DNA from: Promethearchaeota archaeon
Lineage (GTDB): Archaea; Asgardarchaeota; Lokiarchaeia; Sigyniarchaeales; SOKP01
NCBI GenBank assembly: GCA_048937405.1
Contig: JBHLNF010000006.1
Span: 32,001-96,000, forward strand
Direction of reading: 5' to 3'
DNA: 64,000 bases
The notes under the pieces were generated by a model that worked only from the letters and a program-made list of their open reading frames with translations, had not been told where the DNA came from and made no database searches. The translations under genes and the position numbers were made by a program. Positions 18,147-63,470 of the stretch are shown here, piece by piece (the first letter of the stretch is position 1; each line of letters begins with the position of its first letter).

Positions 18147-18515
18147 ATGGTGGAATCAATTTTAATAATAAGTGATCAATCACCAGTTGGAAAGAATTTT
18201 GCTGCAGAAGCAATTAGGATTGGCTCTGGATTTGTAGCACTGGGAGAATATATAGACTGTAAAATTGTTTTTATGGGAGATGCTGTTTATTTATTCAATA
18301 AAAATGCTTCTCCTGAAACTGTGGGAATGGATTCAATTGATGAAATTCTTGAGATGGCAGAATTATCTGATTTAGAAGTGTATATAATTGAATCAGCTCT
18401 GAATAACGCAGGCTTGACAAAAGAGGATTTAGTAGAATATGAGAGTATGAAGATTATTACTATTGATGATCTAGTAGATCTAATAGAAAATGCGGATGTA
18501 TGTTTTAGATATTAG
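18147..18515 (+). CDS. dsrF: DsrF/TusC-like protein
   Basis: SPVG...EAIR, VFMGDAVY; lies between dsrE and dsrH. Confidence 0.75.
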   Translation: MVESILIISDQSPVGKNFAAEAIRIGSGFVALGEYIDCKIVFMGDAVYLFNKNASPETVGMDSIDEILEMAELSDLEVYIIESALNNAGLTKEDLVEYESMKIITIDDLVDLIENADVCFRY

Positions 18516-18530
18516 GAGGAGGAAAATAAT

Positions 18531-18872
18531 ATGACAGATAATCTTGATATAATTTATTTATTCGGATATAGTAGTAATACTGGAAGGCAATTAGAACGAT
18601 TATTTCCTATTATACATTTACAAAAAGTTAAAAATTCTAAAATTGGCTTAGTTTTAATTCATGATGGAGTAATTGGAATTACAACTAAAGGGAGTATTCC
18701 TAAAGAAATGGAAGACTTTCTTGATTTAAATATTGCTATGTTTGCAATGATTCCTGATTTGAAAGCACGTGGTATATCACTTGATTATATCAGTGAGAAA
18801 ATTAAACTCATCGAATATGACGATCTTATAGATATTTTGGATATAACACCAAAAATAGTATCTTGGATGTAA
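18531..18872 (+). CDS. dsrH: DsrH/TusB-like protein
   Basis: LIHDGV, DLKARGI, I.YDDLID, C-terminal SW. Confidence 0.8.
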   Translation: MTDNLDIIYLFGYSSNTGRQLERLFPIIHLQKVKNSKIGLVLIHDGVIGITTKGSIPKEMEDFLDLNIAMFAMIPDLKARGISLDYISEKIKLIEYDDLIDILDITPKIVSWM

Positions 18873-61733: not shown

Positions 61734-62759
61734 ATGAGATTCATTACAGGATTAAAAAATCTGTCAAAAAAGAAATTATTATTAACAATTATTATAATTT
61801 TCATCATTTCTTGGATTTTATTGCTTTTTGGGGCAATTTTATCAAATGACACGTTTACTGGATTTATCTTCATTTTTATATTAGTTTTAGCAGCATTTAC
61901 TTTTATACTATTAATTTTTTCCCTTTTTTTCAATCTTGATGAAAGAGCAACATTTGTAGTAATAACATCATTCATCTTATTTTTACCTATTGCGTTCGTT
62001 TTTAATAATTTTATTTGGACGTTTTTTGGTTTCTGCTTTGTTGCTAATCAGATATTTACTGCTTTCTTTGCGTTCAAATTTTGTATGGATACATCTACTA
62101 CAGTAGATGATTATTTATATAGGAAGAAGGGATCAAGGATATTTATGAGAATATTAGAATTCGTTGTTTTTCTAGTTCTTACAATGTTATTCGTTATTTT
62201 CATTATACGACAATTTAAAAATTCGAGTAATCCAGACGTTCAAGCTTTAGGAGTTGTCCTCGAAAGAATTTATCTTATTCTAATAGTGATTGATACTATA
62301 TTATTTGTATTTGGAATACTACGATTTATCCCTACTAAGAAATTTCCTGCTTACATTTCTCTTTTCTATCTCTTAACATTTATCTATATGTTCTATTTAG
62401 TTATAAGTCTTTCATTAAAATATAGCCCTGATAACGCTTATAATTGGCTTTCATTTATAATTGATTTATTTATCTTCTTGTATCTTCTTGGTTCTATATT
62501 CGAACGAGTTGAGTATATCAAAGAAAGTATTAAAATATTAGGTGCAGATACAATTGCATTATTTGTAATATTAATGAAATTAATTGTACAAATCGTTGAT
62601 ATTATATTGATTTCTGGCAAGCCCCTAAACCCTGATGCAGAAAAGTTTATACTTGGTTCCATTTTTGTTTTATTACTATGTTTTGCTCTCTTTACTCTAT
62701 TGATAGGTCTCTATAAGATTTTCGCTCATAAAGAAGGGAAAAAGTCAAAACATTCATAA
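61734..62759 (+). CDS. Multi-pass membrane protein of unknown function
   Basis: About 10 TM segments, 341 aa. Confidence 0.7.
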   Translation: MRFITGLKNLSKKKLLLTIIIIFIISWILLLFGAILSNDTFTGFIFIFILVLAAFTFILLIFSLFFNLDERATFVVITSFILFLPIAFVFNNFIWTFFGFCFVANQIFTAFFAFKFCMDTSTTVDDYLYRKKGSRIFMRILEFVVFLVLTMLFVIFIIRQFKNSSNPDVQALGVVLERIYLILIVIDTILFVFGILRFIPTKKFPAYISLFYLLTFIYMFYLVISLSLKYSPDNAYNWLSFIIDLFIFLYLLGSIFERVEYIKESIKILGADTIALFVILMKLIVQIVDIILISGKPLNPDAEKFILGSIFVLLLCFALFTLLIGLYKIFAHKEGKKSKHS

Positions 62760-62853: not shown

Positions 62854-63099
62854 ATGAGTGAATCTGATTTAACTGAATTAAGAAAGGGAAAAACCAATAA
62901 GATTCTTATACTAGTACTAATAATAATAGGATTTGGAATGATTATTACAGTTCTTATTATCTTGTACATAAATATTGGAATTGATACTGGAGGATGAGGT
63001 TGTGCACTTATTGGTTTCATAAAGATCATGTCTACCCAAAATTCTTTAAACAATGATTATATCGAACTAATTAAAAAAATTGGCACATTTCTCATATAA
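62854..63099 (+). CDS. Candidate single-TM selenoprotein (Sec48 in GGUGC), not in ORF track
   Basis: MSESDLTELRKGKTNKILILVLIIIGFGMIITVLIILYINIGIDTGG-TGA(62995-62997)-GCALIGFIKIMSTQNSLNNDYIELIKKIGTFLI-TAA, with a SECIS-like hairpin immediately downstream. Confidence 0.7.
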
Positions 63100-63158
63100 T
63101 TACCAAATGGAATGATTCTTTCTAAAAAATGCTAGTAGAAAGATGACTTACCTTGTAA
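63100..63158 (+). promoter_or_regulatory. Eukaryote/Lokiarchaeota-type SECIS element (3' UTR)
   Basis: ATGA(63112-15) T TCTTTCTA [AAAAATGCTAG] TAGAAAGA T GA(63145-46) C: non-Watson-Crick quartet, perfect 8-bp helix, A-run at loop start, imperfect lower helix (ttac..gg / cc..gtaa). Confidence 0.72.
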
Positions 63159-63317
63159 GGTTATTGGTAAAAAAGATCATTTTTAAAAAAAATCTCAAGT
63201 AATAAGAATTTATTATCGAGACCTTGTTTAATTAAAAAGGATGGATATTCTGTTTTTTTTAATTATAAAACATTCCATAATAATAAATTTTAAAAATCCA
63301 ACAAATCTACGTAAAAT

Positions 63318-63470
63318 ATGCCAAAAGTTATACTCGAAGTAAATGAAAAAAAGATACCACTAAAAGATTTTATGCAAGAAATGCTTACAAATATAGTACT
63401 TGGTTATTTAAATTCTACAAAAGGAGTACCGGATGATATAAAGGACATTAAAATTAATATTAATTTATAA
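63318..63470 (+). CDS. 50-aa protein resembling the C-terminal extension of MobB, not in ORF track
   Basis: MPKVILEVNEKKIPLKDFMQEMLTNIVLGYLNSTKGVPDDIKDIKININL*; fits a V.L.VN...IPL..F......N...G......KG pattern. Confidence 0.65.
   Translation: MPKVILEVNEKKIPLKDFMQEMLTNIVLGYLNSTKGVPDDIKDIKININL

Follow-up and report, generated by a model that had tools for sequence, protein, structure and literature searches.

A small open reading frame with an in-frame UGA

The window examined here is the whole of a 64,000 nucleotide (nt) stretch of DNA from a Promethearchaeota archaeon (NCBI GenBank assembly GCA_048937405.1, contig JBHLNF010000006.1, positions 32,001 to 96,000 of the forward strand), and coordinates refer to it unless a contig is named. 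Near its 3' end lies a small open reading frame (ORF) that is interrupted by an in-frame UGA codon and followed by a selenocysteine insertion sequence (SECIS) of the type known as lokiSECIS. The original prediction, a reading of the letters made before any database was searched, had described an ATG-initiated ORF with a basic N-terminus, a transmembrane (TM) helix, a TGA and 33 further codons, in an Asgard host of the Lokiarchaeota. All of these parts are present where they had been placed, and the source is a member of the Promethearchaeota, equivalent to Lokiarchaeota. The features of the gene are as follows.

62854..63099, + strand: selenoprotein coding sequence, 81 codons plus TAA (63097-63099), translated with TGA as U
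62995..62997, + strand: UGA codon 48, the predicted selenocysteine (Sec); TGA at the aligned position in 39/39 extracted members
62989..63003, + strand: G-G-U-G-C motif, residues 46-50; Sec invariant and the preceding Gly at least 90% conserved (39 members)
62902..62970, + strand: predicted TM helix, residues 17-39, with a Kyte-Doolittle mean of 3.3 over 19 residues
62845..62847, + strand: possible ribosome-binding site GGA, 7-9 nt 5' of the ATG, proposed from the sequence

From the ATG at 62854 the frame reads ...IDTGG-TGA-GGT-TGT..., with 33 sense codons between the TGA and the TAA. The encoded product is laid out as a Lys/Arg-rich N-terminus, one TM helix, a Gly-rich linker and the GG-U-G-C motif, which would contain Sec48 and Cys50. 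Because UGA terminates 109 of 780 long open frames in this genome, a count close to that of TAG, a global reassignment of the codon was excluded.

Distribution and conservation of the family

Orthologs were sought by six-frame searches that read through stop codons, using a protein query first and profiles afterwards. The phylum-wide sample held 399 Asgard genomes from 85 genera, of which 133 belong to the Lokiarchaeial family of the window and 266 to other families. Matches bearing a TGA were obtained in 82 of the 133 genomes, across seven genera, and in 0 of the 266 genomes of other Asgard families. Of the 54 species genomes sampled from the window's genus, about 45 gave a match that contains a single in-frame TGA. 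The seven weak matches among the 266 other-family genomes consist of long ORFs and of TM proteins rich in Cys, and the four small other-family matches that were read contain no TGA or SECIS. In a congener that lacks the gene (genome G063) the syntenic site holds other genes and no SECIS.

A family alignment was made from 39 distinct members, each extracted together with its downstream element. Sec is the sole invariant column of this alignment, its usual context being G-G-(G)-U-x-C, and TGA is never swapped for TAA or TAG at that position. The search with the read-through product had been proposed in the original prediction, and related genomes do carry TGA at the aligned position.

When 1.84 billion representative proteins were searched exhaustively with a hidden Markov model (HMM), 41 entries were obtained, each of them truncated at the UGA or carrying W there. 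The full-length public copies with Trp at the Sec position (P0003-P0006, P0011, P0039) are gene-calling artefacts, since a code with TGA as Trp was used in gene calling on contigs of low G+C.

Coding sequence beyond the UGA

In 35 of the 39 members a further 15-33 codons follow Sec. In 18 pairs of close sequences, not independent of one another, the part after the UGA has 122, 63 and 156 differences at codon positions 1, 2 and 3, a pattern like that before the UGA (143, 88 and 179). The frame is thus open and shows the substitution bias of coding DNA, and conservation past the TGA, which had been predicted, is present. For most of the genus the terminal TAA or TAG is separated from the AUGA core of the SECIS by 11-13 or 18 nt, with larger distances in three members; from the UGA to AUGA the distance ranges over 43-118 nt. 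Five members stop one to two codons past Sec (...G-U-G-stop or ...G-U-C-stop) and keep a SECIS 34-86 nt on.

Two variants of the reading frame were also observed. In another genus of the family (L086 and L090-L093, and also in L054) the stop codon is the UGA inside the AUGA core of the SECIS, so that it overlaps the kink-turn (K-turn). The ortholog at L058 (genome G046) has two in-frame UGA codons, with the motif G-G-G-G-U-P-C-U.

The lokiSECIS element

The element lies in the 3' untranslated region (UTR) of the gene and consists of the following parts.

63098..63180, + strand: complete lokiSECIS in the 3' UTR, covariance-model match of 68.1 bits
63102..63107 with 63163..63168, + strand: lower stem (helix I); alignment columns 5-10/66-71 are 95.6% paired and 4/6 pairs show compensatory changes
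63109..63115, + strand: 5' side of the K-turn, made up of C-stem 63109-63110, A 63111 and the AUGA core 63112-63115; AUGA invariant in 15/15
63109-63110 with 63147-63148, + strand: C-stem of the K-turn, 2 bp, with compensatory changes in both pairs
63116-63124 with 63136-63144, + strand: helix II, 9 positions, with compensatory changes in 6/9 pairs
63125-63135, + strand: 11-nt apical loop AAAAAUGCUAG, read from the sequence
63145..63146 and 63147..63148, + strand: K-turn GA (invariant) and 3' strand of the C-stem
63150..63162, + strand: side hairpin on the 3' side, between the K-turn and the lower stem, consensus ACC-UUGCAAn-GGU
63181..63185, + strand: T5 run directly 3' of the SECIS, a possible archaeal transcription stop judging by its sequence

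The AUGA core begins 12 nt past the TAA and 117 nt past UGA48, and helix II at the locus is composed of 8 Watson-Crick pairs and one U.U (9 positions). According to the original report, lokiSECIS elements come right after the stop codon and comprise AUGA, a 9-bp stem, an 11-nt apical loop and GA, the loop's five opening nucleotides being A-rich and its final nucleotide G, usually with A before it (PMC4989117). The geometry at the locus is an exact fit to this description: it is 9/11/9, and the loop starts with five A and ends in AG. The same 9/11/9 arrangement of helix II and loop is found in all of the first 15 orthologs (15/15), and runs of T occur 3' of the SECIS in several orthologs as well.

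An AUGA...GA quartet, an 8-bp helix and unpaired adenosines opening the loop, 12 nt past the TAA, had been noted in the original prediction and are seen as it described. Its delimitation of the SECIS held for the core and failed for the end coordinate, beyond which the conserved structure continues to occupy 63098-63180 in total. On the alignment of 15 orthologs the four-helix structure is 93% paired, with compensatory changes at 13 of 20 pairs; the co-variation that had been proposed as a check is therefore found. No shuffled alignment out of 500 matched the observed values (0/500), and controls in which the pairing partners were slid dropped to 30-51% paired.

Rfam models gave nothing over threshold in the window and noise alone around the locus at E<=10. 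This miss is to be expected because lokiSECIS generally escapes standard SECIS detection, and the original report states that the standard tools miss these elements (PMC4989117).

The lokiSECIS of this lineage is larger than the stem-loop described in print. It includes a lower stem that co-varies, a C-stem accompanied by a bulge of 3 nt, and a side hairpin. The 2-bp C-stem and the bulge give the classical layout of a K-turn, and the conserved side hairpin (ACC-UUGCAAn-GGU), located past the GA and ahead of the 3' strand of the lower stem, produces a three-way junction. The VhuD, HdrA and PrxL SECIS elements of this genome share the extended layout. We found no description of the side hairpin in the available text of the two Asgard SECIS papers (PMC4989117, PMC11227280).

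Genome-wide searches with SECIS covariance models

Two covariance models were used. Model R1 was built from the SECIS elements of the new family and searched against the genome of the window (4.47 Mb, 29% G+C), where it gave nine matches of at least 46 bits and then none above 18.5 bits. The ORFs located 5' of the other eight matches all contain an in-frame TGA; three are of the VhuD/MvhD type, one is HdrA, one is Prx-like, and the rest are small and unassigned.

Model R2 was built from five SECIS elements of known families in the same genome (three of VhuD, one each of HdrA and PrxL), with the candidate excluded from training. Scoring with a Loki-type covariance model was among the checks first suggested for the locus, and this independent model, run with filters off, matches 63098-63180 at 68.1 bits (E=2e-16), the runner-up in the 64-kb window reaching 16.6 bits. 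Genome-wide the candidate has E=1.5e-14 and ranks sixth, directly below the five training sequences. Only nine matches in the 4.47 Mb exceed 50 bits: six stand after known selenoprotein genes (the five training genes and VhuU, the last identified with its D-C-U-x-x-C-x-x-H motif), two come after a small, unassigned ORF with a UGA on contig C16, and one is the candidate. Because of this score and rank, the candidate hairpin is regarded as a bona fide SECIS of the genome and not as a chance structure.

Further lokiSECIS matches were noted elsewhere in the genome. The two on contig C16 are in tandem (C16:26144-26226 and C16:26605-26688, both on the - strand) and score 54-62 bits. An ORF of 66 residues, in which a UGA separates two TM helices (...K-S-U-G-M...), is found 5' of the first. 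It may encode a further membrane selenoprotein, which by HMM has no relation to the new family. On contig C7 a match of 46.5 bits with R1 (C7:547307-547389, + strand) begins 3 nt past a frame of about 158 codons that contains two adjacent UGA codons (...A-D-U-U-A-D...).

Sec machinery of the genome

All the components of Sec synthesis and insertion that the original prediction had listed for verification (tRNA-Sec, SelD, PSTK, SepSecS and EFSec) have a counterpart in the genome, those for PSTK and EFSec being graded as PSTK-like and EFSec-like. SepSecS scores 474 bits, above the cut-off, and the SelD gene has an in-frame TGA, i.e. its product contains Sec. The PSTK-like kinase (154 bits) and the EFSec-like factor (232 bits, far above EF1A) are the clear best matches to their models, though both are below cut-offs that belong to non-Asgard models.

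The tRNA-Sec gene is located on contig C7 (C7:230424-230580, + strand; about 18425-18581 of locus L109), 78 nt 5' of SepSecS, and the EFSec-like gene is about 6 kb away. Its acceptor stem is 9 bp long, its anticodon is UCA and its variable arm is long; it has discriminator G and an encoded CCA, and it carries two inserts, one of about 34-36 nt in the D arm and one of about 29-30 nt in the T loop. An intron in the T loop has been reported for Loki tRNA-Sec. On the raw genome the gene was missed by ARAGORN and Rfam, and also by single-deletion scanning; ARAGORN calls tRNA-SeC(tca) only with both inserts removed, and the Rfam score is just 24 bits because of the inserts.

Protein architecture and proposed chemistry

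Over the 39 members the TM segment has a Kyte-Doolittle value of about 3.1 and a conserved pattern, S-x-x-G-L-A-x-I-I-T. Lys and Arg together average 4.5 in the 15 residues before the helix and 0.1 in the 15 after it. By the positive-inside rule this charge bias would leave the N-terminus in the cytoplasm and Sec just outside the membrane, so that the protein probably adopts an N-in/C-out topology. The TM helix and Sec are separated by 0-13 residues (median 9). AlphaFold2, run on the alignment, models a helix at residues 4-41 (pLDDT, the predicted local distance difference test, 75-88), a loop at 42-49 that includes Sec, and a second helix at 50-80, with an overall pLDDT of 64.

Sec has a Cys or a second Sec no more than three residues away in 34 of the 39 members. 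In 27 the Cys is at position +2, in five it is at -2, and one member reads U-P-C-U. A Cys at -2 (G-C-G-U-G) is often present in members that have none at +2, from which it can be argued that the pair of Sec and Cys is what selection keeps. The Pfam and NCBIfam models yielded no family match for any member, and the NCBIfam selenoprotein families, including the selenobacteriocin family TIGR04081, are not among the weak matches. A sequence search of the PDB returned TM-helix noise alone.

A scheme for the gene can be proposed on this basis. Recoding would proceed as in other lokiSECIS genes, by Sec machinery of the archaeal/eukaryote type (Sec-tRNA and an EFSec-like factor) directed by the lokiSECIS of the 3' UTR. 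The Lys/Arg-rich N-terminus would stay in the cytoplasm while the hydrophobic helix 17-39 crosses the membrane, and the short Gly-rich linker would display Sec48 and Cys50 at the outer face, with an amphipathic tail of 33 residues next to them. In the likeliest chemistry the U-x-C site would form a selenenylsulfide, giving a membrane-tethered selenol/thiol couple that would be a seleno-version of the CxC redox motif. Such a couple could take part in thiol/disulfide or peroxide redox reactions outside the cytoplasm, or could bind a soft metal or chalcogen; the odds that the predicted site serves a redox or metal function at all appear about even.

Gene neighbourhood

The order MFS transporter, 341-residue TM protein, selenoprotein, 50-residue ORF is conserved in the genus only, and in other genera the neighbours are unrelated housekeeping genes, for an FGGY kinase, TrmB or PGK. 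The upstream neighbour (61734-62759, + strand) is a multi-TM protein of 341 residues with no Pfam match, which is kept on the same strand within the genus only. A 341-residue neighbour in another genus is unrelated to it. The downstream ORF (63318-63470, + strand; 50 residues) begins 218 nt from the selenoprotein gene and is present in 37 of 43 related loci. It has 72-92% identity in many of these 37, which exceeds the conservation of the selenoprotein, and no Pfam match.

Evaluation of the selenoprotein reading and its alternatives

The full explanation that we favour is that 62854-63099 is a real protein-coding gene in which UGA48 is decoded as Sec by means of the lokiSECIS, and we give it a probability of roughly 0.88. 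The analysis establishes the gene, the conserved UGA, coding past the UGA, the SECIS and the Sec machinery, and from the sequences UGA48 very probably encodes Sec. The original prediction of TGA as Sec48 of an 81-residue membrane selenoprotein thereby gains the support of orthologs, a coding signature after the UGA, the SECIS and the machinery.

Several observations weigh against this reading or against parts of it. Most selenoprotein families include Cys-containing homologs, which is usual and not obligatory, and here a Cys form was not found by a word search of 5.8 billion proteins (one truncated relative matched), among the 1.84 billion representatives searched by HMM, or in the six-frame searches of the 399 Asgard genomes; the usual argument from Sec/Cys pairs is therefore unavailable. 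Five of the 39 members are without a Cys near Sec, so that an intramolecular Se-S couple is not universal. The predicted topology has the positive-inside rule as its only support, and in the structural model the tail after Sec is of low confidence (pLDDT about 55), the first helix alone being confident. The sequencing runs that contain the locus are all metagenome DNA (sediment, mangrove and other), with no RNA run among them, and beyond the genus the neighbourhood yields no functional clue.

The original prediction had called the protein possibly related to, or convergent with, the eukaryotic membrane selenoproteins SELENOK and SELENOS (SelK/SelS). The resemblance is real in outline: the new protein is small, has a single TM helix and is rich in Gly ahead of Sec, it comes from an Asgard archaeon whose SECIS is eukaryote-like, and a minority of orthologs end in G-U-G-stop, several of them as ...GGGUG-stop or ...GTGUG-stop, which are similar to the C-termini of SelS and SelK. 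However, Sec is second or third from the C-terminus in only 5 of 39 members, and at the locus itself a tail of 33 residues follows it. In SelK and SelS the C-terminus is cytosolic and Sec is tens of residues from the TM helix, after a long disordered or coiled segment, whereas the family described here has the opposite predicted orientation (N-in/C-out) and at most 13 residues between helix and Sec. The profiles PF10961 and PF06936 match none of 15 members at E<=10, and the family is confined to one Lokiarchaeial family (82/133 genomes, and 0/266 other Asgard genomes). The Gly-rich motif is short, of low complexity and easily convergent, and the result of Huang et al., who report no eukaryote-specific selenoprotein family in Asgard archaea (PMC11227280), also counts against homology. 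It is therefore very unlikely that the family is an archaeal ancestor or relative of the selenoproteins of the eukaryotic endoplasmic reticulum membrane, and just as unlikely that an Asgard lineage held an ancestral ...GGUG-stop membrane selenoprotein of which SelK and SelS are descendants or xenologs. Given the lack of a profile match, the opposite predicted topology, the short linker and the narrow range, the resemblance is best called convergent, and on these sequence comparisons it would be at most that; relatedness, the other half of the earlier suggestion, finds no support.

That the ORF is a selenium-sensing regulatory short frame, or the precursor of a secreted selenopeptide of the double-glycine type, is likewise highly improbable. 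The very small size of the ORF, the GG directly before Sec and the highly conserved 50-residue ORF lying 218 nt downstream within the genus would suit such a role, and a review lists a bacterial family, 'selenobacteriocin', in which the motif is SGUG. Against this, the TM segment carries conserved residues and exceeds a double-glycine leader in length and hydrophobicity, no NCBIfam model including TIGR04081 matches, the neighbours in other genera are wholly different, and the short forms would yield a 'mature peptide' of one to two residues. A true stop at UGA48, leaving a 47-residue membrane peptide and a hairpin that is a terminator or an unrelated RNA structure, is scarcely credible: truncated forms of 39-54 residues are what gene callers and public databases mostly give, UGA acts as an ordinary stop in the rest of the genome and five orthologs do end one to two codons past it, but the hairpin reaches 68 bits with a model of known SECIS elements (nine such elements genome-wide, six behind known selenoprotein genes), the frame is open for 15-33 codons with coding-type substitutions in 35/39 members, and the position is never TAA or TAG, while the short forms too retain their SECIS 34-86 nt on.

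Comparison with known systems

Published surveys list seven selenoprotein families in Asgard archaea and eleven in archaea, which are all soluble redox enzymes or subunits of them (PMC11227280, PMC13188914). The new protein, read as a selenoprotein, is outside all seven Asgard and all eleven archaeal families listed by 2026 (PMC11227280, PMC13188914), its omission being explained by the fact that the surveys searched for homologs of known families. The original prediction recognised no archaeal family in it, and this agrees with its absence from both lists (PMC11227280, PMC13188914), from Pfam and from NCBIfam.

With respect to its motif, the family resembles the C-terminal GCUG of thioredoxin reductase, the CxC (CGC) motifs and the UGC/UxC motifs: its Sec has a Cys 1-3 residues away (U-x-C in 27 and C-x-U in 5 of the 39 members) in a flexible, Gly-rich context, and such an arrangement is suited to forming a selenenylsulfide. 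Bacterial UGC/UxC selenoproteins include a UGC-containing TlpA-family protein, DUF1573 and the SO_0444-family transporter (PMC13188914). The NCBIfam models for the TlpA-type, DUF1573 and SO_0444 families do not match the new protein. In those proteins the Sec/Cys motifs sit in folded enzymes or transporters, whereas here the motif is carried on one TM helix with no recognisable domain. The FeoB-associated Cys-rich membrane protein family (PF12669) has a similar layout, in which a basic N-terminus is followed by a single TM helix and then a Gly/Cys-rich segment, and it matched only one of 15 members at E=0.11, below the gathering cut-off.

Look-alikes without Sec occur at L120-L123, in other Asgard families, and at L084 and L085. 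Some are small and have a basic N-terminus, a TM helix and many C-x-x-S-C repeats, and a 43-residue TM peptide with a poly-Gly stretch is also among them. The Cys-rich TM proteins at L121-L123 match the new family mainly over the TM helix and have no Sec and no SECIS. The look-alikes may be Cys/Gly analogues of the architecture.

The family would add a tiny membrane-anchored group to the selenoproteins, one that appears to contain Sec obligately because no Cys form has been found. Standard gene callers do not see the gene: it is cut short, or its UGA is rendered as Trp. The protein, a natural U-x-C peptide of minimal size attached to a membrane anchor, would be a test object for the use of selenium versus sulfur, and the family offers a concrete case for the question of convergent origin of architectures like those of SelK and SelS. 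It differs from the known lokiSECIS proteins in being membrane-anchored and very small, with no detected Cys form, known fold or enzyme family. In its gene organisation it is the same as the lokiSECIS genes of the two Asgard SECIS papers (VhuD, HdrA, VhuU, Prx-like and SPS; PMC4989117, PMC11227280), with an in-frame UGA and a 3'-UTR element after the stop codon. As such, it is a real and previously unlisted selenoprotein family, in which a known recoding mechanism serves a new protein.

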